Below are positions 20,098 through 56,440 of a stretch of 64,000 nt of DNA, one piece after another. Each line of letters begins with the position of its first letter. The stretch's first letter is position 1. The stretch is taken from assembly GCA_036524115.1 (NCBI GenBank), contig DATDCY010000315.1:41917-105916 (forward strand), written 5' to 3'. Below the pieces are notes generated by a model, which saw nothing but the letters and a program-made list of their open reading frames with translations, ran no database searches and was not told where the DNA came from. Source of the DNA: a bacterium. Its GTDB lineage: Bacteria; JAUVQV01; DATDCY01. Made by a program: the position numbers and the translations under genes.

Positions 20098-20178
20098 GAT
20101 CCCGGCGCAAGACTCTATGACCTGGACGCCGCGCCTGTCAACGTGCCGCGTCCGCGGTTGCGCGGCCTGCGCACAGAT

Positions 20179-20207
20179 GCTATACACATCCCCCGAATGG
20201 TGACAGG
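20179..20207 (+). promoter_or_regulatory. Candidate promoter of the darA-darB operon
   Basis: TTGCGC - 17 nt - TATACA lies about 55 nt upstream of the darA ATG. Confidence 0.25.
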
Positions 20208-20261
20208 AAAGGGCCGATCCGTCCGCGTCCGACCCGGGATCCACTTCTTGCCCACGCCGAG

Positions 20262-22803: not shown

Positions 22804-23802
22804 GTGGCCCGGGCCTTCGATCACCGCCATTCGGGGCACTGCGAGACCGGGGCGCTGTCCGCGCTGTTGAGGGACCGCGGACTCGACCTGAGCGAGCCCA
22901 TGGTCTTCGGCCTCGGCGGGGGCGTCTTCTTCGTCCACGCGCCATTCGTGCGCGTGGGGGGCGTGCCGCTCACGGCGTACCGCGACGCGCCAGGGGCGAT
23001 CGTGCGCAGGGTGTGCGCGCGGCTGGGGATCCGCATGCGGACGCACCGCTTCCGGAGCGAGTCGCAGGGCGAAGAGAAGCTCGATGCCCTCCTGGCGGCC
23101 GGGAACTCCGTCGGACTGAGGGCGAGCGTCTACTGTCTCCCGTACTTCCCGAGGGAGATGCGCTTTCGCTTCAACGCGCACCACCTGGTGGTCTTCGACA
23201 GGGAAGGCGGCGAGTACCTGGTCAGCGACCCCGTGTTCGACCACGTCGAGCGCTGCCCGGCGGCGGACCTCGCGCGGGCGCGCTTTGCGAAGGGACTGTT
23301 CGCGCCCAGGGGGCTTCTCTTCTACCCGGAGCGCATTCCGCGGGACTTCGACCTGGACCGCGCCGTCAGGAAGAGCATCCGCTTCACCTGCAGGCGCATG
23401 ACCGCGACGCTGCCGTTCATCGGCGTGCGCGGCATCAGGTACCTGGCGCGCCGGATGCGGCGGTGGCCGGCGAAGCAGGACTACGCGGATGCGGTCCTGA
23501 ACGTGGGGACCGTCGTCCGGATGCAGGAGGAGATCGGCACGGGCGGGGCGGGCTTCCGTTTCATGTACGCAGCGTTCCTGCAGGAGGCGGCCGAGGTGAC
23601 CGGGCTCCCGGCACTCAGGGACGAGGGCAGGGCCATGGCCGAGACGGGGGACCGCTGGCGGGACTTCGCGGTGCAGGGGGCCCGGCTCTGCAAGGGCCAC
23701 GTGCGGGGGGACGCGGCGTTCGACGAGCTCGCCGCGATGCTCGTGGAGTGCGCGGACCGGGAAGAGGGCCTCTATCGGCGGCTGCTCACGATCGTCAGGT
23801 GA
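22804..23802 (+). CDS. BtrH_N-like (papain-fold, C39-related) putative acyltransferase
   Basis: The N-terminal segment HSGHCETGALSALL resembles the BtrH N-terminal domain. This call is tentative. Confidence 0.35.
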   Translation: MARAFDHRHSGHCETGALSALLRDRGLDLSEPMVFGLGGGVFFVHAPFVRVGGVPLTAYRDAPGAIVRRVCARLGIRMRTHRFRSESQGEEKLDALLAAGNSVGLRASVYCLPYFPREMRFRFNAHHLVVFDREGGEYLVSDPVFDHVERCPAADLARARFAKGLFAPRGLLFYPERIPRDFDLDRAVRKSIRFTCRRMTATLPFIGVRGIRYLARRMRRWPAKQDYADAVLNVGTVVRMQEEIGTGGAGFRFMYAAFLQEAAEVTGLPALRDEGRAMAETGDRWRDFAVQGARLCKGHVRGDAAFDELAAMLVECADREEGLYRRLLTIVR

Positions 23803-24076
23803 CGGGGGCGCCGGGCTGGATGACGTCGGCCAGCGCGTTCAGGGATTTCATCACCCGCATGGCCTCCTTCCGGTCGTTGATCTGCACCCCGTAGTCCTTC
23901 TTGAGGGCCACCACCAGCTGCAGCGTGTCCAGCGAATCGAGCTCCAGCGTCGATCCCGGCCCGATCAGGGCCAGGTCCTCGGGGATGGATTCCGGCGCAA
24001 TGTCGAGCCTGCACTCCCTGATGATCAGCGCCTTCAGCCTCGACTTCAGCTCTTCGTCCTCGGAGCCCTTCTTCAC
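23795..24076 (-). CDS. Acyl carrier protein
   Basis: LDSLDTLQLVVAL carries the phosphopantetheine Ser context. The ORF is 93 aa with a GTG start. It is the last gene of the ABC-transporter operon. Confidence 0.75.
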   Translation of the reverse strand: MKKGSEDEELKSRLKALIIRECRLDIAPESIPEDLALIGPGSTLELDSLDTLQLVVALKKDYGVQINDRKEAMRVMKSLNALADVIQPGAPVT

Positions 24077-26325: not shown

Positions 26326-26444
26326 CGGTCGGGCTGGCTCAGAAGGGGGTCACCATTTCGGGCCCGAGTATCGGGAGAGCGCCGGCCGAAGTCAAGTCGG
26401 GCCGGCCGTCGGGGACTCGCGAGCGGCACATGCCGCGACGCGCT

Positions 26445-26497
26445 TGACAGGCGCGGGTGATTCCCCTACTTTCTGGCATTCGTGGCGCCATGTTGAC
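26445..26497. promoter_or_regulatory. Divergent promoter region with two TTGACAGG repeats
   Basis: cgcTTGACAGGcgcg occurs at about 26445 and tgTTGACAGGacg at about 26490. They lie in the 190-bp gap between the ABC ATPase gene (minus strand) and the rSAM-SPASM gene (plus strand). Confidence 0.25.
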
Positions 26498-26515
26498 AGG
26501 ACGAGAAGCACCGCA

Positions 26516-29183: not shown

Positions 29184-30299
29184 TTGAAACCGGCGATCCC
29201 AAAGAAGCTTCCCCTGGCAAGCCTGGGCTGGGGCGATCTGATCCCCCCAATTGCCGCGGCCAATCGCGCCCTTGCCCTCTACGAAGGCATTCTCCACGGC
29301 GTCCCGGAGCCGCAGGTCCTGCTCTCGCCGCTGACGACCAACGAGGCCGTCCTCTCTTCCCGCATCGAGGGGACGCGGGCCACGCTCAACGAAGTGCTCG
29401 AGTTCGAGGCCGGGGCCGAAATCGTCGAAGAGTCGAAGCGCCAGGACATTCAGGAGATCATCAATTATCGGCGCGCCCTGCGCCGTGCGGAGGAGGAGCT
29501 TGTCGGCCGCCCCTTCAACCTCAATCTGCTCAAGGAGCTGCACGATATTCTCCTCGACAGCGTCAGGGGCCGCAACCGGGAGCCGGGGCGCTTCCGTACG
29601 ACACAGAACTACATTGGCGCGCGCAACGCACCCATTGAGCAGGCCGCGTTCATTCCGCCCGAGCCGGGGCTGCTGCTGGAATGCCTCGACAACTGGGAGA
29701 GGTACTACCACGCCGAGGAACGCGATGCCCTCGTTCAATTGGCGATCGTCCACGCCCAGTTCGAGATAATTCACCCCTTCTCGGACGGCAATGGCAGAAT
29801 CGGACGCATCCTCGTGCCGCTCTTCCTCTACGAGCGCAAGATTCTCTCCCGCCCGATGTTCTATCTCTCGGGCTACCTTGAAGAGCACCGGGACGAGTAC
29901 ATCGCTCATCTGCGTGCTTTGAACGGCCCGGAAAGCTGGAATCGTTGGGTGCGCTTCTTCCTCGGCGCGCTCGTCGAACAAGCCCGCGAGAACGCCGACA
30001 AGGCGCGTGGCATTCTCGCCCTCTATGAGAGGCTCAAGGTCCAGGTGCTCGGCCTCACGCACTCGCAGTACGCGATTCCGCTTCTCGACCGGCTCTTCCG
30101 GCAGCCGGTCTTCTCGAGCAGCAGCGTGACAGGCGCCGCAGCCATGCCGAGCAAGCCGATGGTCATGAACCTCCTGCGGAAGCTCCGTGAGGCAGGCATC
30201 CTCACGGTGGTGCGGGAGGGGAGCGGGCGACGGCCGCAAATCCTGGCGCTCGCGGAACTCGTGAACCTCTGTGAGGGAAAGCCCGTCTTCCGGATGTAG
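29184..30299 (+). CDS. Fic family protein (AMPylase/adenylyltransferase-type)
   Basis: The canonical Fic motif is HPFSDGNGRIGR. The RBS is AAGGAGG. The ORF is 371 aa. Confidence 0.85.
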   Translation: MKPAIPKKLPLASLGWGDLIPPIAAANRALALYEGILHGVPEPQVLLSPLTTNEAVLSSRIEGTRATLNEVLEFEAGAEIVEESKRQDIQEIINYRRALRRAEEELVGRPFNLNLLKELHDILLDSVRGRNREPGRFRTTQNYIGARNAPIEQAAFIPPEPGLLLECLDNWERYYHAEERDALVQLAIVHAQFEIIHPFSDGNGRIGRILVPLFLYERKILSRPMFYLSGYLEEHRDEYIAHLRALNGPESWNRWVRFFLGALVEQARENADKARGILALYERLKVQVLGLTHSQYAIPLLDRLFRQPVFSSSSVTGAAAMPSKPMVMNLLRKLREAGILTVVREGSGRRPQILALAELVNLCEGKPVFRM

Positions 30300-30365: not shown

Positions 30366-30647
30366 CTAACCGGCAGGGGGTTTGCGAACCTTCCTCCAGG
30401 TTTCCTCGTAGATCGTCCGGCGTGGGCCGACGGCGACGATCTCGATCACCGTCCCGGCGACCCGGTAGATGATCCGGAACCGGGCGACGCGACAACTCCG
30501 CAGACCCCCAAGCTCATCGCGAAGCGCCTTGCCGATGGTCGGGTCGTCGAGCAGGTCGTCGAGGGCTGACCGGATCTTGCGCTTCAGGTCGGGGTGAAGC
30601 CCCCGGATCAGTGCGGCGACGTCATCGGGGATCCTGAGTCGACGCAT
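30366..30647 (-). CDS. Type II toxin RelE/ParE family
   Basis: The ORF is 93 aa. ...RVARFRIIYRVAGTVIEIVAVGPRRTIY is typical of the RelE/ParE fold. It is coupled downstream of the antitoxin. Confidence 0.75.
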   Translation of the reverse strand: MRRLRIPDDVAALIRGLHPDLKRKIRSALDDLLDDPTIGKALRDELGGLRSCRVARFRIIYRVAGTVIEIVAVGPRRTIYEETWRKVRKPPAG

Positions 30648-30659
30648 GAGGATGAAGGG

Positions 30660-30923
30660 TCAGTCGGCGAATAGTTCGTCCAGTGTGTACAACGTCGCTT
30701 TGCCGCGCTTGAGGGCAGAGAGTCCCCGGCGGATTTCGGCGACGAGATCCGCATCTGCCCGGACCGCAGCCGTTTCCTTCCAGCTCTCGAAATCATCCGG
30801 GCTCACGAGAACCGCGGCCGCCCGCCCGTTGCGGGTGATGACGATCTCCTCGTCGTGCCCCTCGACCGCGTCGAGCAGGGCGCTGAGCCGAGCCTTGGCC
30901 TCGGAGAGCGGGACCGTTTTCAT
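30660..30923 (-). CDS. Type II antitoxin Phd/YefM family
   Basis: MKTVPLSEAKARLSALLDAVEGHDEEIVITRNGRAAAVLVSPDDFESW is present. The ORF is 87 aa. Confidence 0.8.
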   Translation of the reverse strand: MKTVPLSEAKARLSALLDAVEGHDEEIVITRNGRAAAVLVSPDDFESWKETAAVRADADLVAEIRRGLSALKRGKATLYTLDELFAD

Positions 30924-31035: not shown

Positions 31036-32643
31036 CTAGCCGGCTTCCTCGCCGGGGACGTCCCCCCGGCGCAGCAGCGTGATCACGTGCCCGTCGAGTT
31101 CCGCGTGGCGGGCTGCGACCGACGGTCCCGCGCCAAGGGCGACGCGGCTCTCCTCCGGCCCGATCTCCAGCACGCGCACCTGTCCCCAGGCAACGGCGAG
31201 GTCGATGCCCAGTACCTTGGCGGCGGCCTCCTTGACGGTCCAGACGCGCGCGGCCGCCGCGATCGCGCCGAGCTGCGACGACGCGACCAGCGTCTGCTCC
31301 GCATCGTCGGCGTAGAGCGGGAGGTTCTCGAGAAGACGGTCCTGGAGCGCTTCCACGTCCACGCCGACGGCCGTCTCCGCGGCCACGGCGATGGTGAAGC
31401 GCCGGTCGTGCGACACGCTGCAGCGCAGGCCCGTCCCGCCGGCCAGCGGCCTGACGCCGTCCCCGTCCAGCGTGTGGATGGCGGTCGCGGGGGTGCGCTC
31501 ATCGCCGGTCAGCCGGCGGAAGAGGCGTTTGCACGCGAGGCGTGAAGAACAATACGAGGTCCGGCGCCGCTCGCCCATCCCGGCCGTGCGCAGGCGCTCG
31601 GTCTCGGTGAGACACTGCTCCGCAAAGGGCATCAGCGTGGCCTGTTCGATGAGGACCACGGCGGCGCATCCCCGGGCGATCGGTCCGAGGGGATCCTCCT
31701 CCGCCCCGGCGCGGACCCACGCCGGCGGCTGCAGCGTCCCGCCGCTCACGTCGCGCATGGTCACCCCGTGGAGCACCTCGCACGGCTGGCCCGCCATGTC
31801 CAGGATCCAGATGTCGAAGGTCAGCACGCCCGCGGCGGCCCCCACGGGGAAGATCCGGCTCACGTAGGTGCCGCCCTCCGTGGGCCGCACGATCTCCCGC
31901 CGGCGGAAGCCCACGGGAAAGGCCACGATCCCCGCGTGCCGCTGGCTCCAGACGCAGGCGGCGTGCAGCGCGGCGTCGAGCACGAAGGGCGAGCCGAGGG
32001 GCGGCTCGGGCGCGTCCTGGCTGCGCGCGGGGGCGTCGATCACCGCGAGCGCCCCCTCGGGCGAGACGAACAGGGGGCGGGCGATCGTCCGGAACGCGGG
32101 GCCGAACGGGACGAGGTCCCGGTAGATCGCCTCCGGCTCCACCGTGAGGCAGCGGCCCGCGAGCGCGGCGGCGAGGTCCAGGGCCGCCGGGATCTCCGGC
32201 CGCTCTTCGGCGACGAACTCGACCTGCGCATGAACCCGCGTGCGCGTCATGCCGGAGGACCCGGCCGCCGTCCGCGTGAGCAGCGCGGCGCGCAGGGAGC
32301 CGTCGTCCAGCGGGCGCAGCTCGCACCAGGCCGCGATCGGGCCTCCGCCGCTTGGCAGCTCGAGGAACTTGTCGAAGGTCGCGTTGCGCAGGCGGCGCAC
32401 CGGCCGGCCCGGTTCGCGCTCGCGGACCCAGCCCGCCAGCAGCTGCATGGCCTCCACGGCCGGGAGCACGGCCCGCCCCTGGAAGCGGTGGTCGGCCCAG
32501 GCGGGCTCGACCGGGATCGTCACGGCCAGGCGGCCGTCGGGACCTAGCGGGGGAAGCGCGCCCACAACTCCAGGGTCTTCTCGTCGATGCCCACCGGGAT
32601 GCCCCTGGCGTTCACCGCGCAGTGCCGCGTGAAGCCGGTGCAC
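31036..32643 (-). CDS. Fusion of PKS-type dehydratase (double hotdog, HxxxGxxxxP) with C-terminal Sfp-type 4'-phosphopantetheinyl transferase
   Basis: The DH motif is PAWADHRFQGRAVLPAVEAMQLLAGW. PPTase motifs GVDVEALQ and WTVKEAAAKVLG lie in the C-terminal 120 aa. The ATG at 32643 would overlap the upstream thioesterase by 100 nt. A GTG at 32565 is an alternative. Confidence 0.6.
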   Translation of the reverse strand: MHRLHAALRGERQGHPGGHRREDPGVVGALPPLGPDGRLAVTIPVEPAWADHRFQGRAVLPAVEAMQLLAGWVREREPGRPVRRLRNATFDKFLELPSGGGPIAAWCELRPLDDGSLRAALLTRTAAGSSGMTRTRVHAQVEFVAEERPEIPAALDLAAALAGRCLTVEPEAIYRDLVPFGPAFRTIARPLFVSPEGALAVIDAPARSQDAPEPPLGSPFVLDAALHAACVWSQRHAGIVAFPVGFRRREIVRPTEGGTYVSRIFPVGAAAGVLTFDIWILDMAGQPCEVLHGVTMRDVSGGTLQPPAWVRAGAEEDPLGPIARGCAAVVLIEQATLMPFAEQCLTETERLRTAGMGERRRTSYCSSRLACKRLFRRLTGDERTPATAIHTLDGDGVRPLAGGTGLRCSVSHDRRFTIAVAAETAVGVDVEALQDRLLENLPLYADDAEQTLVASSQLGAIAAAARVWTVKEAAAKVLGIDLAVAWGQVRVLEIGPEESRVALGAGPSVAARHAELDGHVITLLRRGDVPGEEAG

Positions 32644-33029
32644 GCCAGGGCGCCGCCCTCGGCGTGGGTGATGACGTAATCGAACTGTGCCTTGACCCGC
32701 TCGAGCGTGGACGGACGCGTGTGGATGTACATCGCGTCGTCGTAGGTCAGCGGGCTGAAGTACTCCAGCCCCGTGGCGATGATCGGGTAGACGAAGCCGC
32801 TCGCCTCGACGTCCTTGTAGGTGTAGCCGGAGTCGCGCATCAGCGAGGCCCGCCCGAACTCGAAGTAGCGCAGGTAGTTCGAGTGGTAGACCACCTGGGA
32901 GCGGTCAGTGTCGGCATACAAGGTGCGCAGCTGGCAGCGGTGCCACACCAGGCCGCTGGTGCGGTCGCGCACGTAGTTCGCGGCGGCATCGCCGTCGAGG
33001 GGCTCGGGGCGAAACGGCTTCGGTCGCAC
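32544..33029 (-). CDS. 4HBT/YbgC-like acyl-CoA or acyl-ACP thioesterase
   Basis: Hotdog thioesterase signatures are present (VVYHSNYLRYFEFGRASLM, ...GFVYPIIATGLEY). Confidence 0.75.
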   Translation of the reverse strand: MRPKPFRPEPLDGDAAANYVRDRTSGLVWHRCQLRTLYADTDRSQVVYHSNYLRYFEFGRASLMRDSGYTYKDVEASGFVYPIIATGLEYFSPLTYDDAMYIHTRPSTLERVKAQFDYVITHAEGGALACTGFTRHCAVNARGIPVGIDEKTLELWARFPR

Positions 33030-33030
33030 G

Positions 33031-34296
33031 CTACACGCCTCTGAAGACGACGCAGCAGTTGGTGCCGCCGAAGCCGAACGCGTTGGAGAGCAGGAACTCC
33101 TGGGCGTGGCGGCGCGCCTGCCTGGGGACGACGTCGATGTCGTCGAAGGCCGGGTCCGGGATGTGGTTGACCGTCGGGAGCACCAGCCCCCGGCGCATGC
33201 CCTCTATGCCGAGCGCCGCCTCGACGGCGGCCGCCGCCCCGAGGGTGTGGCCGATCTGGGACTTGTTGGCGGAGATCGGGATCTTCCCCAGGGCTTGCCC
33301 GAACACGGCGCGCAGGCAGGCCACCTCCACCGCGTCCCCCTTGGGCGTGGAGGTGCCGTGGGCGTTGACCGCGTCGATGTCGGCCGGCTCGAGCCCGGCG
33401 TCGTCGATCGCCTCGCGGATGGCCCGCACGATGGTCTCCTGGTTGGGCATCGTGAAGTGGTGGGCGTCGGAGGTCCAGCCGATCCCGGCCACCTCGGCCA
33501 GCGGCTTCAGCCCATGCTCGGCCAGCGCGGTGTCCGCCGCGAGCACCAGGACGCCTCCGCCCTCGGCCATGACGAAGCCCTTGCGGTCGACGCTGAACGG
33601 GCGGGAGGCCTGCGTGGGGTCCGCGAACGCCCGGTCGCCCTCCGTGACCTTGATGGTGGCCCACATGTTGGAGAACCCCTGGATGATCTCGGGGATCAGA
33701 CAGGTCTCCACGCCGCCGGCGAGCACGAAGTCGCAGTCGCCGTCCCGGATCATGCGCGCGCCGATGGCGATCGCGTGGTTGCCCGAGGCGCAGGCGCCCT
33801 GCGGCGAGAAGATCGGCCCGGTGAAGCCGAGCAGCATGCCGGCCTTGCCGGCGGGCACGTTCGCGCAGAGGTTCGGGAGCAGGTACGGGCTGACCTTCGT
33901 CGGGCCCTCCCGCGCCAGGTTCTCCACGGCGATGCGCATCGCGTCGCTGCCGTTGAGGGCGGAGCCCACGAGGCACGCCGTCCGCGGGCCGGTGCGCCCG
34001 TCCATGGCGAGCCCGGCGTGCGCCAGGGCCCGCTTGCAGAGGGCCATCGTCAGGAAGACGAAGTCGGCGTTCCAGCTGCCGGCATCCTTGGCCTTGACGA
34101 AGTCCAGGGACTCCGGACGCCAGTCGGGGATCTCCCCCACGACGTTGCTGCGCGAGTCGGTGGCGCAGCGCGTCACCCGCCGGAAGCCGGCCTCGCCGCG
34201 CACGGCGCGCTCCCAGGTGCTCTCGAGCGTGGAGCCAAGCGCCGTGGCCACGTCGTAGCCGACGACGTAGACCTTCCGGTTCAGCGGCGGCCTCAT
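33031..34296 (-). CDS. Beta-ketoacyl-ACP synthase (FabF/FabB-type KS, active Cys-His-His)
   Basis: The start is MRPPLNRKVYVVGYDV. Catalytic contexts are GACASGNHAIAIG, NAHGTSTPKGD and IGHTLGAAAAVEA. Confidence 0.85.
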   Translation of the reverse strand: MRPPLNRKVYVVGYDVATALGSTLESTWERAVRGEAGFRRVTRCATDSRSNVVGEIPDWRPESLDFVKAKDAGSWNADFVFLTMALCKRALAHAGLAMDGRTGPRTACLVGSALNGSDAMRIAVENLAREGPTKVSPYLLPNLCANVPAGKAGMLLGFTGPIFSPQGACASGNHAIAIGARMIRDGDCDFVLAGGVETCLIPEIIQGFSNMWATIKVTEGDRAFADPTQASRPFSVDRKGFVMAEGGGVLVLAADTALAEHGLKPLAEVAGIGWTSDAHHFTMPNQETIVRAIREAIDDAGLEPADIDAVNAHGTSTPKGDAVEVACLRAVFGQALGKIPISANKSQIGHTLGAAAAVEAALGIEGMRRGLVLPTVNHIPDPAFDDIDVVPRQARRHAQEFLLSNAFGFGGTNCCVVFRGV

Positions 34297-34330: not shown

Positions 34331-35581
34331 TCATGCGACCCGCTCGAAGACGACGCACGTGTTGCAGCCCCCGAACCCGAAGGCGTTCTTGAGCACGAAC
34401 GTCTGGTCGACCCGCCGGGCGCCCTCGGCCACGCAGTCGAGCGGCAGCTCCGGGTCGGGCCGATGGTTGATCGTCGGCGGCAGCATGCCCGCGAGCATGC
34501 CCTCGAAGGCGAGGACGGACTCGATCGCGCTGGAGGCGCCCATCGCATGGCCCGTGAGCGACTTGTTCGCGGTCACCGGCGGCAGAGCGTCGCCGAAGAC
34601 CTCCCGCAGCGCGTCGTACTCCACCTTGTCGCCCACGCGCGTCGCCGCGGCGTGCGCGTTGACCGCGTCCACGTCGCCGGGCGCCACCCCGGCCTGGTCC
34701 AGGCTCTCGCGGATGCAGCGGCGCACCGTGTCGAGGTGCGGCGCCACGAAGTGGTGGGCGTCCGACGTCATGCCCCAGCCGGCGACCGCGATCCGGTAGT
34801 CCAGGCCGTGGGCGCGGGCGAACTCCTCGGCGGCGAGGACGACGCACCCGGCCCCCTCCGACACCACGAACCCGCGCCGGTGCGCGCTGAAGGGCCGGCT
34901 GGCGGCCTGCGGCGGCTCCTCGGGCTGCCCCTCCTTCGGGACGTAGGCGCCGTTCATCGTGGCGAAGCCGGCGACGATCGGCTCGACGAGCGCGAAGTCG
35001 GCCGCGCCGCAGAGCACCACGTCCGCCCGGTCCTGCGCCAGCAGCAGCGCGCCCACGGTCATGGAGGTCACGCCCGTGGCGCACGCCGTCACGGTGCTCA
35101 CGATCGGGCCCGTGGCGCCGGTGTGCATCGAGACCTTGCCGCCGACCATGTTGATGCAGGAGTTCGGGTTGACGCAGGGCAGCGGCAGCGTGCCGTCGGC
35201 GACGAGCTTGCGGTCGGCGGCGAGCACGGCGTCCAAGCCGCCCACCGCCGAGCTGTAGGTGATCGCCACGCGCGGCGCCAGTTCCGGCGTGATCCGGAGG
35301 CCGGAGCGGGCGAGGGCGCGCTCGACGGTGACGAGCGCGTACTTGAAGATCGGCGAGGGCCAGCGGGCCTGCTCGCGCGGCTTGAGGAAGTCGTAGGGCA
35401 GGTGGTCGATGTCCGGGGCCTGGCCGGCGATCTTGACGGGGAAGTCGTCGCCGGCCGCAAAGCGGGTCAGCCGCCCGACGCCGCTCTCGCCCCGCAGGGC
35501 GCGCTGCCACTGCCCGTCCAGGTCGAGCCCGAGCGGGGAGATCGCGTCGTAGCCGACGACGACGGGACGCCTGCCGAGCAA
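34331..35581 (-). CDS. Beta-ketoacyl-ACP synthase paralog
   Basis: RPVVVGYDAISPLG, TACATGVTSM, NAHAAATRVGD and TGHAMGASSAIE are present. The probable TTG start lies 9 nt after the upstream rSAM stop. Confidence 0.75.
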   Translation of the reverse strand: MLGRRPVVVGYDAISPLGLDLDGQWQRALRGESGVGRLTRFAAGDDFPVKIAGQAPDIDHLPYDFLKPREQARWPSPIFKYALVTVERALARSGLRITPELAPRVAITYSSAVGGLDAVLAADRKLVADGTLPLPCVNPNSCINMVGGKVSMHTGATGPIVSTVTACATGVTSMTVGALLLAQDRADVVLCGAADFALVEPIVAGFATMNGAYVPKEGQPEEPPQAASRPFSAHRRGFVVSEGAGCVVLAAEEFARAHGLDYRIAVAGWGMTSDAHHFVAPHLDTVRRCIRESLDQAGVAPGDVDAVNAHAAATRVGDKVEYDALREVFGDALPPVTANKSLTGHAMGASSAIESVLAFEGMLAGMLPPTINHRPDPELPLDCVAEGARRVDQTFVLKNAFGFGGCNTCVVFERVA

Positions 35582-35589
35582 CGCGCCCC

Positions 35590-36588
35590 CTACCAGGGCA
35601 GGAACTTGTAGAGCTTGGCGAACATCTCGTAGACCTCGATCCAGTTCTGGAGGTCCCTGGTCGAGGCCATGTGGGCGCGCTTGTTGACCATCACCCAGCT
35701 CATGTGGGCCGCGCCGTCCTTGCACGTGGAGCAGTCGCGCGTCTCCGAGGTGCAGCAGCGGTGCATGGTCTTGAGGTCCGAGGCCCAGCGGATGAAGTTC
35801 GTGAGGTGCTTCGGGGCCGGGTCGCGCTTGTCGAGCGGCTGGGTCACCGACGGGCACTCCATCCAGCCGAACGGCCGGCCGAGCATCATCCCGGTGGTGA
35901 TGACCTCGTGGTAGTACTTGGAGCTGATGACCGTCTCCGGGTAGGCATCGAGCATGGCGTCCATCTCGGCGCGGATGGCGGTCAGCTCCCCGGGCTTCCA
36001 GCTGAAACCCGAGACCCCCTCGTCGTTGGAGAGCAGCTGCATGTGCACCTTGAGGCCTGCGTCGCGGATCTTGCGGATGATGCGCTCGGTCCGGCCGATC
36101 TGCTTGGGCGTGATGGTGAAGAGGTAGTAGGTGTAGGGGTCGCCCTCGTAGTTCTTGCTGGAGATGGCGAAGGTGTCCCTGCCACGCAGCACGCGCTCGT
36201 CCTGCTCGTCGCCCCAGAGGGAGATGCCGACCATCAGGTCCGGGAAGCGGTCGCGGGGCACCTTGATCAGTCCGTTGGACGCGCAGAAGGTGGGGAGCCG
36301 CTTGTAGAACGCCTCCACGCGGTCGAGGCAGAGCGTCGGCTCGCCGCCGATGAGGATGGCGAGGTTCACGCCCCGTTCCATCTCCCGGTCGACGAACGCC
36401 TCCCACTCGGCGACGTCGGTCTCCTCCGGGGCGGCCTTGTGCTCGTTGGACGAGAAGAAGAAGCACCCCTTGCACCGCAGGTTGCAGCGGTTGGTGACGT
36501 CGTAGATGGAGCTGCGGATGTTGAGCCGGGAGATCTTCCGGTAGCGCTCGTGCCAGTGCTCGTCCAGGAGGGAGCTGATTGTCTTCAT
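35590..36588 (-). CDS. Radical SAM enzyme (non-B12), C-terminal Cys cluster
   Basis: CNLRCKGC and ILIGGEPTL are present. The C-terminal cluster is CCTSETRDCSTCKDG. The ORF is 332 aa. Confidence 0.8.
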   Translation of the reverse strand: MKTISSLLDEHWHERYRKISRLNIRSSIYDVTNRCNLRCKGCFFFSSNEHKAAPEETDVAEWEAFVDREMERGVNLAILIGGEPTLCLDRVEAFYKRLPTFCASNGLIKVPRDRFPDLMVGISLWGDEQDERVLRGRDTFAISSKNYEGDPYTYYLFTITPKQIGRTERIIRKIRDAGLKVHMQLLSNDEGVSGFSWKPGELTAIRAEMDAMLDAYPETVISSKYYHEVITTGMMLGRPFGWMECPSVTQPLDKRDPAPKHLTNFIRWASDLKTMHRCCTSETRDCSTCKDGAAHMSWVMVNKRAHMASTRDLQNWIEVYEMFAKLYKFLPW

Positions 36589-36602: not shown

Positions 36603-37652
36603 CTAGTCGAGCCCGAAGCCCGGTGGCGCCGTCATCCTTTCGCAGAGATTCCGGCCCTTAGTATAGTCCACGACCCAGACGGCGAGGTAGGTGTCGACGT
36701 AATCCAGCCAGGAGCGGAAGGTGTCGGGGTCCGTCGCGTGCCGGAAGAGGCGCGCCGTGACCACCGCGCTGCCGGCCGCGTAGTGGCGGCAGTCGGGGCA
36801 GTCGGTGTCGGGGACGCAGCAGGCGGCGTCCCGGTCCCACTCCAGGTCCGTGCGGTACTGGCGAAATGAGCGTCCCAGGCCTAAGTCCGTGGACGGGTTC
36901 CGGCGGGGGTACGAGCAGCCGAACAGGTCGTGCAGCCCCAGCCGGTGGGTGTGGGCCACGGCGTTGTAGGGCGAGAAGAGCACGTGGTCGGGGTGGCGCG
37001 CCAGCAGCTCGGTCATCGTCCGCCGGGTGCGGGCCAGCGACTCGGGCGTGTGACGCAGGCGGCCGCTGTAGCCGACGGGCGCGGAGAACATGTTGAACGT
37101 CACCTTGCAGTCCTCGCGCGCCAGGGTCGCGACCACGTCGCCGGCCTCGTCGATGTTGTGCGGGGTGAAGGTGTAGACGAAGACGGCGCGGGAGTCGCCC
37201 TTGTAGTTCTCGATCTGGCGGGCGAGCATGTGCCTGGCGCCGCGGATGCGCGCGCTGGTCTCGTCGTTGCCCCAGACCGAGACGTGGATCCGGTAGCCCA
37301 CGGCGCGGGGGATGTGCATGATGCCGTTCGAGGCGATGGCGCCCAGCGGCATCTCCTCGTGGCACACCCGGAGCAGTTCGGGCACGAGGGAGGGCTCGGC
37401 GCCGGCGAGCACCACGTAGGTGATGCCGCGGTCGCGCTCGGCGCGCATGAGGGCGCGCCACGCGTCGGGGTCGCCGTGCTCCGCCGCGTGCTGCTTGTCC
37501 CCCTCGAAGTAGTAGCAGCCCTCGCAGCGGATGTTGCAGCGGCGGGTCATGTCGTAGGTGGACTCGCGGAGGAAGAAATAGCGCCGCACGCGCTCCCACC
37601 GGGCCCTGACCTCCGGTTCCGCGGTCAGGGCCGCGAACGTCCACTCCGCCAT
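36603..37652 (-). CDS. Radical SAM enzyme, paralog of 35590..36588
   Basis: CNIRCEGC and VLAGAEPSL are present. The C-terminal cluster is CCVPDTDCPDCRHY. The start MAEWTF lies 8 nt after the upstream ACP stop. Confidence 0.8.
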   Translation of the reverse strand: MAEWTFAALTAEPEVRARWERVRRYFFLRESTYDMTRRCNIRCEGCYYFEGDKQHAAEHGDPDAWRALMRAERDRGITYVVLAGAEPSLVPELLRVCHEEMPLGAIASNGIMHIPRAVGYRIHVSVWGNDETSARIRGARHMLARQIENYKGDSRAVFVYTFTPHNIDEAGDVVATLAREDCKVTFNMFSAPVGYSGRLRHTPESLARTRRTMTELLARHPDHVLFSPYNAVAHTHRLGLHDLFGCSYPRRNPSTDLGLGRSFRQYRTDLEWDRDAACCVPDTDCPDCRHYAAGSAVVTARLFRHATDPDTFRSWLDYVDTYLAVWVVDYTKGRNLCERMTAPPGFGLD

Positions 37653-37660
37653 CGTGCGGG

Positions 37661-37933
37661 CTAGGCCCCGGCCGCCAGCTTGCCGTGGATGTACTGGGAG
37701 ATCAGGCGCAGGGTCTTGAGCTTCGGGTAGTCGTCCTCGTCGATGCGTACGCGGTACTGGTCGCGCAGCACCAGCGCCACGGTCGCCAGGTCCATGCTGT
37801 CGACGCCCACCTCGTCCACGAGGTCCAGGTCGGGGTCGAAGGTCTCGGGAGTTACGTCCTCGAGCTTCAGCTCCCTGATCATGATCCCGGCGATGTTGAG
37901 GATCAACTGGTCCAGTTCCATTGCTACAGCCAT
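37661..37933 (-). CDS. Acyl carrier protein-like
   Basis: VDEVGVDSMDLATVAL carries the Ser context. The ATG at 37933 is preceded by a GGGGGGG Shine-Dalgarno-like run. Confidence 0.6.
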   Translation of the reverse strand: MAVAMELDQLILNIAGIMIRELKLEDVTPETFDPDLDLVDEVGVDSMDLATVALVLRDQYRVRIDEDDYPKLKTLRLISQYIHGKLAAGA

Positions 37934-38023: not shown

Positions 38024-38404
38024 CTAACGCTCCACGCTCTTGACCACCATCGTCCCGCTGCACACCGGCGTCTCCCCCCTGGTGATCCGGAAGGCGTACG
38101 CCCCGTCGCGGCCGGGGCGCGGCTCGGCCGACACCTGCAGCTGCTCGCCCGGCAGGATCATCTGCTTGAAGCGGACGCGGCTGACTTCCGCCACCCGCGC
38201 GGGCAGGCCCAGGGCGGACTGGATTAGATCGGCGACCATCGCCAGCTGCGCGATTCCCGGCAGCACCGGCTGACCGGGAAAATGGCCGTCAAACCAGGGA
38301 GAATCAGCGGGGACCCACACGTCAACCATTAGAGCGCAATCGCCTCGTCGTATGTCGGCTGCCTTGTACCACAGAGGATTTGTTCCTGCAAATTGTTCGC
38401 TCAT
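38024..38404 (-). CDS. Hotdog-fold 3-hydroxyacyl-ACP dehydratase (FabZ/APE-type)
   Basis: PWFDGHFPGQPVLPGIAQLAMVADL is present. The ORF is 126 aa. Confidence 0.75.
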   Translation of the reverse strand: MSEQFAGTNPLWYKAADIRRGDCALMVDVWVPADSPWFDGHFPGQPVLPGIAQLAMVADLIQSALGLPARVAEVSRVRFKQMILPGEQLQVSAEPRPGRDGAYAFRITRGETPVCSGTMVVKSVER

Positions 38405-38503: not shown

Positions 38504-39868
38504 TCATCGCACGAGGTGCTCCCACAGGGGGCCGGACCGGCCGCGCTGGTGCATACGCTGGAGGATGGCCGTCGCGGCGTCCCCGCCGGAGGCCTCGACC
38601 CAGTTGTCCCGCCCCCGGGCCCGCTTGGCCAGGGCCTGCGCGATCGCGGGAAGGGTGATCCCCGCCGGCTGGTAGAACACCGGTTCCACGATGTTCGCTC
38701 CGGCGGCGATCTGCCCCTCCCGCACGGCCAGTTCGTGCAGGGGCGTGTTCGGGTAGATGCGCATGCCGCCGAAGAGGAAGAGAACGGTCCTCTCGAGCGT
38801 CTCGATCTGCGCCAGGGTGTCGGCGAACGTCTCCTCCGTCTCACCGGGGCCGCCGAAGAGGAGGTAGTGGGCCACGTGCAGGCCGGCGGCCCGCGCGGCG
38901 CGGTGGGCGGCCAGCACCTCGCTGCGGCGGAAGGGCTTGCCGTAGGCCTTCAGGACGCCGTCCGTCAGGGACTCCGTGCCGAATTCCACGTGCCTGAGCC
39001 CGCAGGCGGCCATGGTCTCGAAGTAGCCCTCCGGCAGGGCGACGGGCGCGAAGAAGCCGCCCCAGGGGATCGTGAGGCCGTGCTCCCGGAAGGCGCGGGC
39101 GACCTCCAGGCTGTGTCCCACGTCGGCGTTGAACGCCGAGTCGGTGATGAAGAGGTACCGGGCCCCCGCCTCCTGGAGCCGCAGGGCGGTGGCCGCCACC
39201 TCGTCGACCGGCGCGTGGCGCAGGCGCCGGCCCTCGATGCGCGGGTAGGTGCAGTAGACGCAGCGGAACGGGCAGCCGCGCTTGGTCTGGAGATTGAGCA
39301 TGCCGCCGTTGCGCAGGTAGAAGTCCACGTGCCCGGCCCGCGCGTCGAAGCGGCGCCTGACGGACTGCGGCCAGGGCTCCGGCGCGGGCAGCGGCGGCCC
39401 CGCGTCCGCCCCGCTCCGGGTCACGACGCCCGGCAGGCCGGCCGGGTCCAGCCCCGCGGCCAGCGCCTCGAGCAGCGCTTCGAGCCGCTCGCCCTCGCCG
39501 ACTATTCCGTAGTCGGCCTCCAGCAGTTCCATGGCTTCGCCCGGGAAGATCGTGAAGCCGCTGCCCCCCAGCACGATCGGCGCCCCGCTGCAGCGGCGGA
39601 CGCGAAGGGCGAGCTGGCGATAGTCCCCCATGTAGCTGCGGGGGGCGCGGCTGTCGGTGTTGTCTGCGTTGCGGAGCGAGAGCCCGATGACTTCGGGGCT
39701 CCATTCGGCGACGGCGCGCTCCAGCGCCTGGTCCTCGCCCAGACAGTTGAGGTCCAGGCAGCGCACCTCGTGCCGCGCGGAGATGGACCCCGCCACGTAG
39801 TCGAGGCCCAGCGGGTAGACCGGGAACGGCTCGCGCACGGTGTTGACGGAGAGCAGGAGCACTCTCAT
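38504..39868 (-). CDS. B12-binding (class B) radical SAM enzyme
   Basis: An N-terminal B12-binding-like Rossmann segment is present (MRVLLLSVN...VIGLS). The rSAM cluster is RGCPFRCVYCTYP. The ORF is 454 aa. Confidence 0.85.
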   Translation of the reverse strand: MRVLLLSVNTVREPFPVYPLGLDYVAGSISARHEVRCLDLNCLGEDQALERAVAEWSPEVIGLSLRNADNTDSRAPRSYMGDYRQLALRVRRCSGAPIVLGGSGFTIFPGEAMELLEADYGIVGEGERLEALLEALAAGLDPAGLPGVVTRSGADAGPPLPAPEPWPQSVRRRFDARAGHVDFYLRNGGMLNLQTKRGCPFRCVYCTYPRIEGRRLRHAPVDEVAATALRLQEAGARYLFITDSAFNADVGHSLEVARAFREHGLTIPWGGFFAPVALPEGYFETMAACGLRHVEFGTESLTDGVLKAYGKPFRRSEVLAAHRAARAAGLHVAHYLLFGGPGETEETFADTLAQIETLERTVLFLFGGMRIYPNTPLHELAVREGQIAAGANIVEPVFYQPAGITLPAIAQALAKRARGRDNWVEASGGDAATAILQRMHQRGRSGPLWEHLVR

Positions 39869-42027
39869 CGCGGCCCGACCATCACGGCGGAGGAGGAGAG
39901 GCCGAGGCCCAGCAGCAGGACGCCCCGGCCGCCGAGGGGGACATCGACCCCGCCGGCGAGGGCGGCCGGGACGAGCTGGTCCCGGACCATCCGGTGCGCG
40001 AGGACCGCCGCAACCGCCGAGGCCGCGCCGAACTGACCGATGGCGCGGCGATAGTCGATCACGGGCCTATCGAAGCCGCTGGCCGCCACGAAGGCCGCCA
40101 GGTCGCGGGAGGCCGCCTCGGCGTGCCCGGCGGGGATGCCGGCGAGGATGGCGCCGACGGTGTTGCGGACGTTCCCGGCCCCACCCGCGGCCTCGAGCAG
40201 CGCCTGCATCGCGTCCGCCCCCGAATCGCCGCGATACGCCAGGAGGGCGACCGTGGGCTCGTCGCCGCGCGCCCGCCGCAGCAGCAGCGCCCCGCCCCCG
40301 TCGGCCGGCGGGGTGCCGCGCACCGAGTCGTCGAACAGCGGCGCCAGCGACGGATGGCCCTCGTCGACGCCGAGCACGAGGACCGCCTGGCCGGGGTCGC
40401 CCGCCAGCAGATCGGCCGCCAGCAGCGCCTGCTCGAAGGAGGCGTCGCCGCCCGTGGTCGTGACGTTGGCCCCCCGGGCGCCGAGGTGCATCGCGATCTG
40501 GCCGGCTGGCGCGTTGTGCACCGAGCCGACGAAGTCCGTGGGGGAGGGGAACCGCTGCCGCGTCTCGAAGAGCCGGCGCAGGAAGTCGTGCGTCTCCGAG
40601 AGCGCGCCCCAGGCCGTGCCGAGGCAGACGGCCATGGGCCCGGCGCCGGCGGGCGCGCCGTGACAGGCCTCGGTCGCCAGGGCCAGGGCCAGCCGCGACA
40701 GACGCTTGAGTCGACGGACGACGCGCGACGGCAGCTCCCCGCAGATCGCCTGCTCGTCGAGGCAGCCGGCGCAACTGCCGCCCGCCGCGAAGCGCTCCCA
40801 GGTGGCGCGCGTGCCGCCGGCCCCGGTCAGGCAGGCGGCGGCAGCGATTGCCAGTGCGGGCGGACGCGGTGGCATCGCGCGAGCGGTCCCGGGCCGGGCC
40901 CTGCCGATCACCAGCGCCGCGTTGTTCCCGCCGAACCCGAAGGAGTTGGAGAGCACGGTGCCGATGCTCCGCCGGACAGGCGCCGTCACCGGGTCCAGCT
41001 TCAGCTGCGGATCGACGTTCTCCAGTCCCGCGTTGGCCGGTGCGAAGCCCTCGTTCACGGCCAGGGCCGAGACCACGGCTTCTATCGCGCCCGCCGCGGC
41101 CAGACTGTGTCCGGTCGCCCCCTTGATCGAGGAGAGAGCGGGCGGGTGATCCCCGAAAAGCGAGACGACGGCCCGCGCCTCGGCCAGGTCGTTGTCCTCG
41201 GTGCCGGTGCCGTGGAGATTGATGTAGTCGATTTCCTCGGGCGCCACGCCGGCGTCGGCGAGGGCGGCCCGCATCGCGGCGATCGCCCCCAGGCCCTCGG
41301 GGTGGGGCGCCGCCGGGTGGTGGGCGTCGCACGACAGGCCGGCCCCCAGTAGCTGCGCGCCCCCGCCGGCGGGCGGATCGCTCGTGAGCAGGAGCAGGGC
41401 CGCGCCCTCCGCCACCGACATGCCGTGCCGGTCGCGGTCGAGCGGGCGGCTGCCCCGCGGGTCGATGAGCTGGAGGGAGTGGAATCCGAAGTAGGTCAGG
41501 CGGCAGAGGCTGTCGGCGCCGCCGGCCAGCACCCGCCGCGCCAGCCCGCGGCGCAGCATGGCCATCGCGAGGGCGATCGCCACGGCGCCCGACGAGCAGG
41601 CGGTGGAGACGGTGATGAGCGGGCCGCGGCAGCCGCAGCGCCGGGCAAGCAGCTCGGCCACGGTGCCGGCGCCGTGATGGCGGTAGGCGGCCGGGTCCTC
41701 GCAGCCGCCTTCCAGCAGCGTCTCGGTGCGCAGGATGCCGCCGGTCGTCGTGCCCAGGACGATGGCGTCGACCGGGCCCGGGGCGCCGGCCAGGGCCTGG
41801 TCCGCGGCAAGGCAGGCCAGACGGTGTGTGCGGGGGAGGCGTTCGCCTTCGTCCTCCGCGAGGTCCACCGCCCCGACGGGCAGGTCGTTCCCGGATTCGA
41901 TGGGGAAGATTCGCAGCGGCCCCAGCCCGCGTCGTGCTTCGAGCAGGGCCGACAGCGTCTGGTCCGTGCCGCTCCCGAGGGCGCCGATCACCCCCATCCC
42001 GGCGATGGAGACCGGGCCACCGCTCAA
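39865..42027 (-). CDS. Ketosynthase fused to a Cys-less KS-like (chain-length-factor-like) domain
   Basis: The N-terminal half has VSIAGMGVIGALG, TACSSGAVAIA, NLHGTGTEDND and GATGHSLAAAGAIE. The C-terminal half has KS-like LAIAAAACLTGAG...RRLKRLSRLALALATEA but no active-site Cys (VHNAPAGQIAM). No stop lies between the halves in this frame. The TTG start overlaps the ACP stop (TTGA). Confidence 0.65.
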   Translation of the reverse strand: MSGGPVSIAGMGVIGALGSGTDQTLSALLEARRGLGPLRIFPIESGNDLPVGAVDLAEDEGERLPRTHRLACLAADQALAGAPGPVDAIVLGTTTGGILRTETLLEGGCEDPAAYRHHGAGTVAELLARRCGCRGPLITVSTACSSGAVAIALAMAMLRRGLARRVLAGGADSLCRLTYFGFHSLQLIDPRGSRPLDRDRHGMSVAEGAALLLLTSDPPAGGGAQLLGAGLSCDAHHPAAPHPEGLGAIAAMRAALADAGVAPEEIDYINLHGTGTEDNDLAEARAVVSLFGDHPPALSSIKGATGHSLAAAGAIEAVVSALAVNEGFAPANAGLENVDPQLKLDPVTAPVRRSIGTVLSNSFGFGGNNAALVIGRARPGTARAMPPRPPALAIAAAACLTGAGGTRATWERFAAGGSCAGCLDEQAICGELPSRVVRRLKRLSRLALALATEACHGAPAGAGPMAVCLGTAWGALSETHDFLRRLFETRQRFPSPTDFVGSVHNAPAGQIAMHLGARGANVTTTGGDASFEQALLAADLLAGDPGQAVLVLGVDEGHPSLAPLFDDSVRGTPPADGGGALLLRRARGDEPTVALLAYRGDSGADAMQALLEAAGGAGNVRNTVGAILAGIPAGHAEAASRDLAAFVAASGFDRPVIDYRRAIGQFGAASAVAAVLAHRMVRDQLVPAALAGGVDVPLGGRGVLLLGLGLSSSAVMVGPR

Positions 42028-42299
42028 CTGGTGAGCCTCGGGGACTTCTCCTGGATGTAGCTGGCGAGCGTCCGCAGGGAGGCGAAGACCCTGGCGCCCA
42101 GCTCCTTGTTGTCGATGACGACCCCGTAGTCCCGCTCGATCATGACGACCATTTCCAGGGTGTCGATGGAGTCGATCCCCAGGTCGCCGCCGACGAGCCG
42201 GCCGTCCAGGGGGATGTCGGCGGGGGTGACGTCCGGGAGGTTGAGGATCTGAACGATCTTGACCCGCAGCGCTTCGATCAGCGTGTCCATGTCCTCCAC
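42024..42299 (-). CDS. Acyl carrier protein
   Basis: GGDLGIDSIDTLEMVVMIERDYG is present. The ORF is 91 aa. Confidence 0.8.
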   Translation of the reverse strand: MEDMDTLIEALRVKIVQILNLPDVTPADIPLDGRLVGGDLGIDSIDTLEMVVMIERDYGVVIDNKELGARVFASLRTLASYIQEKSPRLTS

Positions 42300-42316: not shown

Positions 42317-42766
42317 ATGGGCGCCGAGGGGACGCAGGGCGGTCCGAACGTGGACCTCGAGACGCTCGTACCCCATCGCGGCCGCATGCTGCTGCTCTCG
42401 GAGATCGTCTCGTTCGATACGGACGAGGCCACCTGCCGCGCCGTCGTGCGCGAGGGCTGGCCGCTGACCGGGGAAGGCGGCGCCGACCCGCTGGTGCTCA
42501 TCGAGCTGGTTGCCCAGACGGCGGCGGTCAACAACGGCTGGAACATCATCCAGACGCAGGAGCCGGGGCGGCACCACCGCGGCTGGATCGCGGGCATCAA
42601 GAGCGCCCGGCTGGGGGTCGACCGCATCGCCCTCGGCACGGCGCTGACGACCCGGGCGCGGAACCAGTTCGCCTACGAGGAGTTCCGCGAGATCGAGGGC
42701 ACGGTCAGCATCGGCGCGGAGGTCGTGGCCGAGGTGACGCTGCAACTCGTGCAGGCGGCGCCGTGA
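42317..42766 (+). CDS. Hotdog-fold dehydratase (FabA/FabZ-like, APE-type)
   Basis: LVPHRGRMLLLSEIVSFD...LIELVAQTAAV is present. The ORF is 149 aa. Confidence 0.7.
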   Translation: MGAEGTQGGPNVDLETLVPHRGRMLLLSEIVSFDTDEATCRAVVREGWPLTGEGGADPLVLIELVAQTAAVNNGWNIIQTQEPGRHHRGWIAGIKSARLGVDRIALGTALTTRARNQFAYEEFREIEGTVSIGAEVVAEVTLQLVQAAP

Positions 42767-46280: not shown

Positions 46281-46302
46281 GTCCTCCGATCCTCGCGCGG
46301 CC

Positions 46303-48364: not shown

Positions 48365-48624
48365 TCAGGCGGCCGTGCGGGCGGCGGCCAGGCGCAGGAC
48401 GTAGTCCACGATCTGGCCGACGGTCCTGATCTCCATGGCGCTCTTCTTCTCCTCGTAGGTCAGGGGGCTGCCGAGGAGCAGCTCGATCTCGCGCAGCAGC
48501 TCGACCGCGTCGATGCTGTCGAACTCGTAGGCCTCGCGCAGGTCCTCGTCCTGGCCCGGGTCCTTGATCTCGAAGCGCTCCGCGAAGACCTTGAGGATGG
48601 CGGCACGGGCTTCGTCGCGGGTCA
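48365..48624 (-). CDS. Acyl carrier protein
   Basis: EFDSIDAVELL is present. The start is placed at MTRDEARAAILK. An upstream ATG at 48644 is an alternative. Confidence 0.7.
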
Positions 48625-48723
48625 TCGGCACCCCGGACGGCATGACACTGGCGATCGCAGCATGGTCACGACTTTCTACTACAAGAGCCGCCGCCTGAAA
48701 AGTCAAATCTTCGTCGGCCTCGC

Positions 48724-56417: not shown

Positions 56418-56440
56418 TGCACCCGTGGGCGGGCGGGGCG

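Follow-up and report, generated by a model that had tools for sequence, protein, structure and literature searches.

A single gene in a 64,000-nucleotide (nt) stretch of bacterial DNA (the window; positions 41,917 to 105,916 of contig DATDCY010000315.1, assembly GCA_036524115.1) encodes a polyketide synthase (PKS)-type double-hotdog dehydratase (DH) fused to an Sfp-type 4'-phosphopantetheinyl transferase (PPTase), and the catalytic motifs of both halves are intact. The coding sequence of this DH-PPTase, 31036..32565 on the minus strand, specifies 509 amino acids between a GTG start codon at 32565 and the stop codon at 31036-31038. It is the last of a conserved block of eight genes and begins inside the gene of the preceding thioesterase. 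The protein is probably a bifunctional accessory subunit of a dissociated (type II) fatty-acid- or polyketide-like pathway, both of its activities being predicted.

Domains and motifs of the DH-PPTase

The open reading frame (ORF) is continuous from 32643 down to 31036 (31036..32643, minus strand) and has 535 residues when counted from the first possible start. Residue numbers given here are those of the 509-residue protein, and positions of Pfam matches are those of the 535-residue ORF. A sequence-only reading of the window had taken this ORF for one gene that combines a PKS-type double-hotdog DH and an Sfp-type PPTase, and Pfam searches, comparison of a family profile with the PDB, motif conservation and fold comparison all bear this out. 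Both of the models to which that reading had pointed as decisive match above threshold, PS-DH at residues 173-304 (42.5 bits against a gathering score of 23.7, E = 6.4e-11) and ACPS, PF01648, at residues 425-521 (35.1 bits against 25, E = 1.5e-8). PKS_DH_N (residues 46-119) and 4PPT_N (residues 354-422, a weak match) remain below threshold and are placed where they are expected, ahead of PS-DH and ACPS, respectively. The family profile matches the DH of CurF (9.2e-10) and that of CurK; it also matches Bacillus subtilis Sfp (2e-8, Sfp residues 9-161, both lobes being covered), AcpS enzymes and human AASDHPPT.

The DH domain occupies residues ~12-271 (31753..32532, minus strand) and the PPTase domain, of the W/KEA class, residues ~301-500 (31066..31665, minus strand). 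The linker between them, residues ~272-300 (31666..31752, minus strand), contains a conserved MRDVSGG..PP.W segment and is modelled with a predicted local distance difference test score (pLDDT) above 90. The motifs quoted in the sequence-only reading, HxxxGxxxxP for the DH and GVDVE and W..KEAAAK for the PPTase, are present. In the DH domain, His26 lies in HRFQGRAVLP, YRDLVPFGPAF spans residues 148-158, and Asp197 and His201 belong to DAALH. The PPTase domain carries CSVSH (382-386), GVDVE (401-405) and WTVKEAAAK (442-450). Its confinement to the C-terminal 120 residues, as that reading had it, was right for the motifs and too short for the domain, which is two-lobed and about 200 residues long.

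Conservation was examined in an alignment of 117 family members, down to 42% identity. His26, Tyr148, Gly155 and Asp197 of the DH and Gly401, Asp403, Glu405, Lys445, Glu446 and Lys450 of the PPTase are invariant (117 of 117), and Gly30, Pro35, His201, Ser383, His386 and Trp442 are nearly so. The residues of YxxLVPFGPxF, the counterpart of the GYxYGPxF-like motif of DH domains, are invariant or close to it. The W..KEA signature defines a subgroup of Sfp-type enzymes favoured by, or associated with, the carrier proteins of PKS and fatty acid synthase (FAS) systems (PMC5605751), and the PPTase domain of the DH-PPTase falls in the subgroup as defined there.

The AlphaFold2 model, calculated with the family alignment as input, has a mean pLDDT of 95.1. 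The relative placement of the two halves is modelled confidently because the predicted template modelling score (pTM) is 0.93. In the model, a double hot-dog (residues 12-271), of which the first strand, beta-1, comprises residues 12-17, is joined through a short linker to an alpha/beta domain (302-500) with two lobes, at 302-396 and 399-500. When the model was compared with the PDB using Foldseek, the best 50 matches were all PKS DH domains, on which its N-terminal half superposes, with E values of 1e-14 to 1e-12 over 270-290 aligned columns; among the stand-alone DH-domain entries the target TM score was 0.63-0.78. The matches include Brevibacillus trans-AT DHs, RzxB, MlnB, PpsC, CurF/H and MAS-like domains. 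Neighbours with isomerase or cyclase roles were also found (4u3v, an enoyl-isomerase, and 5o16, a dehydratase-cyclase), as was 6mbh, GphF DH1.

Start codon and overlap with the thioesterase gene

On comparative grounds, translation most probably starts at GTG 32565, which gives a protein of 509 residues and means that the first 22 nt of the DH-PPTase gene are also the last 22 nt of the thioesterase gene, a genuine overlap (32544..32565, minus strand). The start is placed there because of the alignment with homologues, the ATG found in 45 related loci, a separate 509-residue gene call and the position of strand beta-1. In an alignment of 20 sequences, the relatives begin with MG-LP-I..GR-AVTI; in the window this segment is matched by the residues after GTG 32565, VGALPPLGPDGRLAVTI, and the 26 residues encoded upstream of this codon have no counterpart in the homologues. 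The length of the overlap was measured in 83 related loci. An ATG stands at the position aligned with GTG 32565 in 45 of the 83, and there the overlap with the thioesterase stop is exactly 22 nt; in a Desulfosarcina group it is 25 nt. The aligned ATG is unambiguous in about 40 loci, since no other start codon lies between it and the in-frame stop that precedes it. A few relatives also carry an in-frame start codon 78 nt upstream. The same protein has 509 residues in a separate gene call made on a Logan assembly.

The start codon is embedded in the conserved Leu-Trp codons near the C-terminus of the thioesterase (...LW..FP.*). In the alignment of the 45 loci, the Leu-Trp codons of the relatives, CTA-TGG or TTA-TGG, yield ATG (cT-ATG-G), whereas TTG-TGG of the window yields GTG. 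The overlap is therefore fixed at 22 nt because the ATG is built from these codons, and the window has GTG in place of ATG because its Leu codon is TTG.

The sequence-only reading had described an ATG at 32643 and a 100-nt overlap, and had offered GTG 32565 and GTG 32523 as other starts. The codon at 32643-32641 is GTG. Initiation there is ruled out by the 26 added residues, which are unmatched in homologues, and by the ~40 loci that lack an in-frame start upstream of the aligned ATG. The overlap that it had noticed is thus real, with a length of 22 nt instead of 100, and among its candidate starts 32565 is the one that comparison upholds. Position 32523 is judged too short because it cuts off the conserved MG-LP-I..GR-A segment together with part of strand beta-1. 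A start at GTG 32523 corresponds to the NCBI entry HEY6000625.1, an identical protein of 495 residues labelled 'MAG TPA: polyketide synthase dehydratase domain-containing protein [bacterium]'; this deposited call is probably 14 codons short. A frameshift that would turn the ORF into two genes is ruled out as well, in agreement with the sequence-only reading of one gene: the ORF has no break, the same layout is likewise uninterrupted in more than 100 homologues, and the junction is confidently modelled.

Distribution of the family and conserved gene order

The family is widespread and catalogued. A search of 5.8 billion proteins (a collection clustered at 90%) returned at least 667 relatives; among the 120 relatives listed, the length is 484-555 residues in 114, and both Pfam domains are present in 115. 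When 185,579 species were scanned, each represented by one genome, 264 proved to have a relative. The fusion is thus rare per genome but not exceptional, and less unusual than the sequence-only reading had supposed in calling it uncommon, with at least 667 members and a second family, the ArsD-type proteins described below. The taxonomy was taken from the best 80 of the 264 genome matches. These are mostly Desulfobacterales (Desulfatitalea, Desulfosarcina), Syntrophobacteraceae and Syntrophales, with a few Spirochaetota and one metagenome-assembled genome (MAG) of the Myxococcales, and in all 80 the identity to the window protein is at most 67%. Desulfosarcina widdelii PP31 is a cultured carrier.

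The PPTase half alone gave 168 matches at E <= 1e-10 among 1.84 billion cluster representatives. The best 150 of them are DH-PPTase fusions or shorter pieces, all of 553 residues or fewer, and by this measure the PPTase clade appears well separated from the mainstream Sfp-type enzymes. Some proteins of 200-240 residues match the PPTase half from their first residue; they may be contig-end fragments or stand-alone split forms.

The conserved block consists of an ApeI-like dehydratase, an acyl carrier protein (ACP), two radical S-adenosylmethionine (SAM) proteins, two ketosynthases (KS) and the thioesterase, with the DH-PPTase last. The gene order is kept between the window (from 42766 down to 31036) and two Desulfatitalea MAG loci, and the block was found in essentially every related locus with enough upstream DNA. 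The most conserved member is the second radical SAM protein, rSAMb, with 75-90% identity across loci; it probably corresponds to the kuste3342/3343-type proteins of the clusters of anammox bacteria, which oxidize ammonium anaerobically. The thioesterase is 59-81% identical across related loci, and its gene immediately precedes that of the DH-PPTase in all but the Syntrophales-type loci (L020, L036, L042, L047, L049, L056, L059, L062, L066, L067 and L083). This group comprises Syntrophales/Syntrophaceae and several unclassified deltaproteobacterial MAGs, and in it the two genes are separated by a gap of 2.9-4.6 kb. L047 and the loci with the larger gap (~4.4-4.6 kb) show, at a point ~1.5-1.6 kb upstream of where the DH-PPTase begins, a weak match to the B12-binding radical SAM protein (24-25% identity). 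The alignment of the DH-PPTase begins about 11 residues later in the Syntrophales-type loci.

The gene cluster of the window

The genes upstream of the DH-PPTase gene lie on the minus strand unless stated otherwise. The overlapping gene (32544..33029) encodes a YbgC/4HBT hot-dog thioesterase of 161 residues with a YADTD motif; the matches to Pfam 4HBT_2 (1.2e-11) and TIGR00051 (81.9 bits against a cutoff of 68.7) confirm its earlier identification as a thioesterase. It is preceded by the genes of two FabF-like ketosynthases in which the Cys/His/His motifs are present, KSb (33031..34296, 421 residues from ATG 34296; ACASG, HGTST, GHTLG) and KSa (34331..35581, 416 residues from TTG 35581; ACATG, HAAAT, GHAMG). 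The radical SAM proteins rSAMb (35590..36588, 332 residues, a weak match to Pfam Radical_SAM) and rSAMa (36603..37652, 349 residues) follow in the upstream direction, and then come the acyl carrier protein ACP2 (37661..37933, ~90 residues, GVDSMD, Pfam PP-binding 9e-8) and a single-hotdog ApeI/FabA-like dehydratase (38024..38404; Pfam ApeI-like 5e-9, FabA 3e-7).

Further upstream, the gene at 38504..39868 encodes a B12-binding radical SAM protein with Pfam B12-binding and Radical_SAM domains. It matches TIGR04072, the NCBIfam equivalog 'lipid biosynthesis B12-binding/radical SAM protein' of the 'ladderane' type, with 380.8 bits against a cutoff of 360. A fusion resembling a ketosynthase and chain-length factor (KS-CLF-like; 39865..41997, ~710 residues, start approximate) has ketoacyl-synt, Ketoacyl-synt_C and Ketoacyl-synt_2 domains. 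Next to it are ACP1 (42024..42299, GIDSID, Pfam PP-binding 4e-7) and, divergently on the plus strand, an ApeP-like dehydratase (42317..42766), of which the Pfam ApeP-like match (1e-4) is below the gathering score; the gene has the same position and strand in a related Desulfatitalea locus (L002). A third ACP is encoded at 48365..48643 (EFDSID, Pfam PP-binding 1.7e-6), with a further ketosynthase, recognized by its Pfam KS domains, downstream of it at 47100-48338. A fourth carrier-protein ORF (23795..24076, minus strand) has a weak PP-binding match (8e-5) and adjoins a BtrH_N/DUF4872 protein. The window thus contains three clear carrier proteins and a weak one, so that the 'many ACPs' of the sequence-only reading is acceptable. 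The window ORFs that were scanned include no second PPTase.

The density of radical SAM genes around the lipid cluster is unusually high, with seven in ~32 kb. Three more genes for B12-binding radical SAM proteins are located at 43536-44765 (plus strand), 44787-46361 (minus strand, BchE/HpnR-like) and 57253-58671 (plus strand), and a radical SAM/SPASM gene at 26276-27592. A fusion of DAK2/FakA-like and DegV domains, resembling a fatty-acid kinase, is encoded at 51031-52746, directly after a second 4HBT thioesterase (52746-53309); the pair suggests that free fatty acids are handled by the cluster. Genes for a polysaccharide deacetylase and a GT25-like protein are at 55593-57169. The BtrH_N/DUF4872 protein (22804-24076 region) is near the fourth carrier-protein ORF and two AMP-binding enzymes (17081-20244). 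BtrH_N/DUF4872 proteins resemble BtrH of butirosin biosynthesis and form an ACP-dependent transferase family.

The DH-PPTase gene is followed immediately downstream by a toxin-antitoxin pair of the Phd/YefM-ParE type (30660-30923 and 30366-30647, minus strand) and by the gene of a Fic/DOC protein (29184-30299, plus strand). The Desulfatitalea relatives hold a PlsY-like glycerol-3-phosphate acyltransferase gene at this place, and beyond it genes of GT25-like, MMPL-methyltransferase, deacetylase and AMP-binding proteins. Downstream of the DH-PPTase the window cluster, whose deacetylase and GT25-like genes are at 55593-57169 instead, appears to have been rearranged or interrupted.

Proposed function and alternative explanations

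In the proposed mechanism, which for the priming of the ACPs agrees with the sequence-only reading and draws on gene context, the PPTase half, with coenzyme A (CoA) and Mg2+, would load 4'-phosphopantetheine onto the conserved serine of the cluster's own ACPs, which are its presumed substrates, and the pathway would be self-priming and not reliant on the housekeeping AcpS. The DH half, by means of the His26/Asp197 dyad, would dehydrate ACP-bound 3-hydroxyacyl intermediates that come from the neighbouring ketosynthases, to give enoyl-ACP. The two domains would act as one rigid unit, and the upstream thioesterase would release or edit acyl-ACP species. Translation from GTG 32565, 22 nt inside the thioesterase gene, is a conserved arrangement that probably couples the synthesis of the two proteins.

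Several observations weigh against this assignment. The parts of the window that were scanned yielded no ketoreductase, which leaves the source of 3-hydroxyacyl-ACP unaccounted for. An extra DH is not obviously needed because ApeI-like and ApeP-like dehydratases are already encoded in the cluster. Within the block, conservation is lowest for the DH-PPTase, at 40-67% identity against 75-90% for rSAMb. Finally, no convincing Shine-Dalgarno sequence precedes GTG 32565, the nearest GGAG being just 2 nt upstream; the lack of a good ribosome-binding site, in turn, makes coupling to thioesterase translation a reasonable inference.

The presence of two other hot-dog dehydratases in the same block could also mean that the PPTase is active and that the ApeI-like/ApeP-like pair performs the dehydration, the hot-dog half of the fusion being an ACP-docking or scaffold domain, a double-bond isomerase or a product-shaping domain. 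The pTM of 0.93 suggests a rigid didomain that is able to present an ACP to the PPTase, and isomerase or cyclase DH-folds (4u3v, 5o16, 6mbh) are among the structural neighbours. However, the catalytic His and Asp and the motifs are invariant in the 117 sequences and are unlikely to be retained by a pure scaffold, and enoyl-isomerase domains of trans-AT PKSs are typically devoid of the Asp. A hot-dog half with no dehydratase activity is therefore considered unlikely. It is the PPTase half that would be unusual if it loaded an acyl- or otherwise modified phosphopantetheine on one apo-ACP as a starter, or if it were a remnant that binds CoA or ACP. Its clade is isolated, the 168 matches among 1.84 billion representatives at E <= 1e-10 being nearly all the same fusion; genes nearby specify AMP-binding enzymes and thioesterases that produce or consume acyl-CoA or acyl-ACP; and Sfp-type enzymes accept acyl-CoAs in vitro. 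Against this, every residue of the Mg2+- and CoA-binding motifs is invariant, and the relative ArsD has been taken as an ordinary PPTase for ArsA (PMC4824345), which together make a non-canonical PPTase very improbable. It is hardly credible that the two halves were joined by a sequencing frameshift or that the protein starts at 32643 with a 100-nt overlap. The ORF is open up to 32643 and a few relatives do possess the in-frame start 78 nt upstream, but the uninterrupted architecture recurs in hundreds of independent assemblies with a confidently modelled junction, and the residues upstream of the aligned ATG are unmatched, with ~40 relatives having no in-frame start before it.

With the DH-PPTase regarded as a bifunctional accessory subunit, the annotation gains a fixed start, 509 residues in place of the deposited 495 or the maximal 535, and two credible activities. 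The enzyme is probably required for the formation of holo-ACPs in a foreign host, and heterologous expression of the cluster should include its gene. The conserved radical-SAM lipid cluster is a more interesting object than the DH-PPTase gene itself.

Relation to known systems

The ladderane clusters of anammox bacteria, kuste3603-3608, kuste2802-2805 and kuste3335-3352, are FAS-like clusters with radical SAM genes and have syntenic relatives in Desulfotalea, Geobacter and Pelobacter (PMC2649909). In kuste2802-2805, the 'ACP synthase' kuste2802 stands beside the B12-radical SAM protein kuste2803 and two KS genes (PMC4790861, Table 2). Ladderanes were not detected in Desulfotalea (PMC2649909), and the heterologous expression of 34 anammox genes produced no new lipids (PMC4790861). 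Biochemical work on the anammox genes has so far dealt with single proteins (PMC10139942; bioRxiv 2026.05.19.726425). Clusters of the antiSMASH 'ladderane' class have been reported, and found to be expressed, in Desulfobacterota, Myxococcota and other phyla, with no assigned function (PMC9902471).

The window shares with these clusters the TIGR04072 B12-radical SAM protein, extra pairs of FabF-like ketosynthases, dedicated ACPs, hot-dog dehydratases, a polysaccharide-deacetylase-like protein, a glycosyltransferase and acyl-AMP ligases. No homologue of phytoene desaturase was found among the window ORFs scanned, in which it differs from the anammox ladderane clusters. The TIGR04072 context and the published clusters therefore place the window cluster in a recognized but unsolved class, which is 'ladderane-type' by gene content, no ladderane product having been demonstrated outside anammox bacteria. 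The fusion of DH and PPTase is not mentioned in the anammox ladderane literature (PMC2649909, PMC10139942, PMC4790861, bioRxiv 2026.05.19.726425), and a literature search found no discrete DH-PPTase described in ladderane-type, Desulfosarcina or aryl-polyene contexts. The Desulfobacterota version of the cluster appears to carry its own priming enzyme, fused to a DH and probably linked in translation to a thioesterase.

A broader interpretation can be put forward tentatively, and is itself rather doubtful. The eight-gene block would be a self-contained, self-priming module of hundreds of anaerobes, related to the anammox clusters, that builds a new acyl chain modified by radical SAM enzymes. 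Within such a module the DH-PPTase might, as an equally speculative extension, both activate the dedicated ACP and set the pattern of unsaturation that the radical SAM enzymes use. If this were true, the occurrence of the family in the cultured Desulfosarcina widdelii PP31 would open a tractable way into a chemistry that has defied study in anammox bacteria.

The combination of the two domains is known from the enediyne PKSs (PKSE; CalE8, SgcE, DynE8), which have a C-terminal DH followed by a PPTase and are accompanied by a separate hot-dog thioesterase such as CalE7 (PMC3107222). The order of the domains, the self-priming and the adjacent, separate gene for a hot-dog thioesterase are as in the window. 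The pair in PKSE is, however, the tail of a megasynthase with ketosynthase, acyltransferase (AT), ACP, ketoreductase (KR), DH and PPTase domains, whereas the window protein is discrete, with 509 residues, and the window thioesterase is an ordinary YbgC-type enzyme with YADTD, unlike the thioesterases of PKSE. A special kinship to PKSE was considered and is unsupported, because none of the best 150 matches of the PPTase half is of megasynthase length.

Other PPTases are encoded with, or fused to, the pathway that they prime, as is proposed for the window. They include Gra-ORF32 of the granaticin type II PKS, PfaE and the PPT domain of fungal FAS (PMC9813960, PMC5605751), as well as RerB of Rhodococcus, in which a PPTase is fused to a thioesterase (PPTase-Y-TE; PMC11563203). 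Among them there is no type II system with a DH-PPTase didomain. RerB joins the thioesterase to the PPTase in one protein, whereas the thioesterase of the window is a separate, overlapping gene.

On present sequence comparisons the closest described relatives of the DH-PPTase are the ArsD-type proteins of the ars (alkylresorcinol/alkylpyrone) operons, and the discrete didomain is thus an existing, if little-discussed, kind of protein. ArsD of Azotobacter vinelandii is described as a PPTase that modifies ArsA (PMC4824345). The domain make-up of ArsD given here is that of the Beijerinckia and Azotobacter homologues analyzed. A tblastn search of plasmids identified, on plasmid pBIND02 of Beijerinckia indica, a 629-residue protein (WP_012382813.1) with PS-DH and ACPS domains. 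Its gene lies behind two type III PKS-like genes and a type I FAS-like gene, which encodes NMO/ER-like, KS, AT, two ACP and KR domains and no DH; this arrangement is the layout of the Azotobacter arsABCD operon. The complete ars-like operon is on the 66.7-kb pBIND02 (locus 17675-42679), and glycosyltransferase and ABC/RND export genes follow the DH-PPTase gene. Members of ~636 residues were found in Azotobacter chroococcum, A. salinestris and Azorhizophilus paspali, and one of 552 residues in A. armeniacus; both domains are present in 119 of the 120 ArsD-type members listed. Alignment of the window family with the ArsD-type family by hhalign (98.6%, E = 1.2e-15) extends over 475 columns with both domains collinear, at 24% identity.

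Like the window protein, the ArsD-type proteins are discrete, have PS-DH followed by ACPS, and are encoded at the end of a lipid-synthase operon; they also possess HxxxG...P, a DxxxQ/H-type motif, GVD(V/I)E and W..KEA. They differ in being ~620 residues long, with an extra N-terminal extension of ~90 residues, as opposed to 509 in the window. Their partners are a type I FAS-like megasynthase devoid of DH and two type III PKSs, whereas those of the window protein are discrete ketosynthases, ACPs and radical SAM proteins, and no thioesterase overlap was seen in their loci. Their hosts are aerobes of the Azotobacter, Methylocystis and Methylococcus type, in contrast to the Desulfobacterota that carry the window family. 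The absence of a DH from the ars-type synthase argues that the didomain supplies a working dehydratase there, and on this ground the DH domain of ArsD would be functionally required, with both DH and PPTase having to come from the didomain, a precedent for the function proposed for the window protein. The kinship of the two families suggests that the didomain is an old and reusable 'DH plus priming' cassette.

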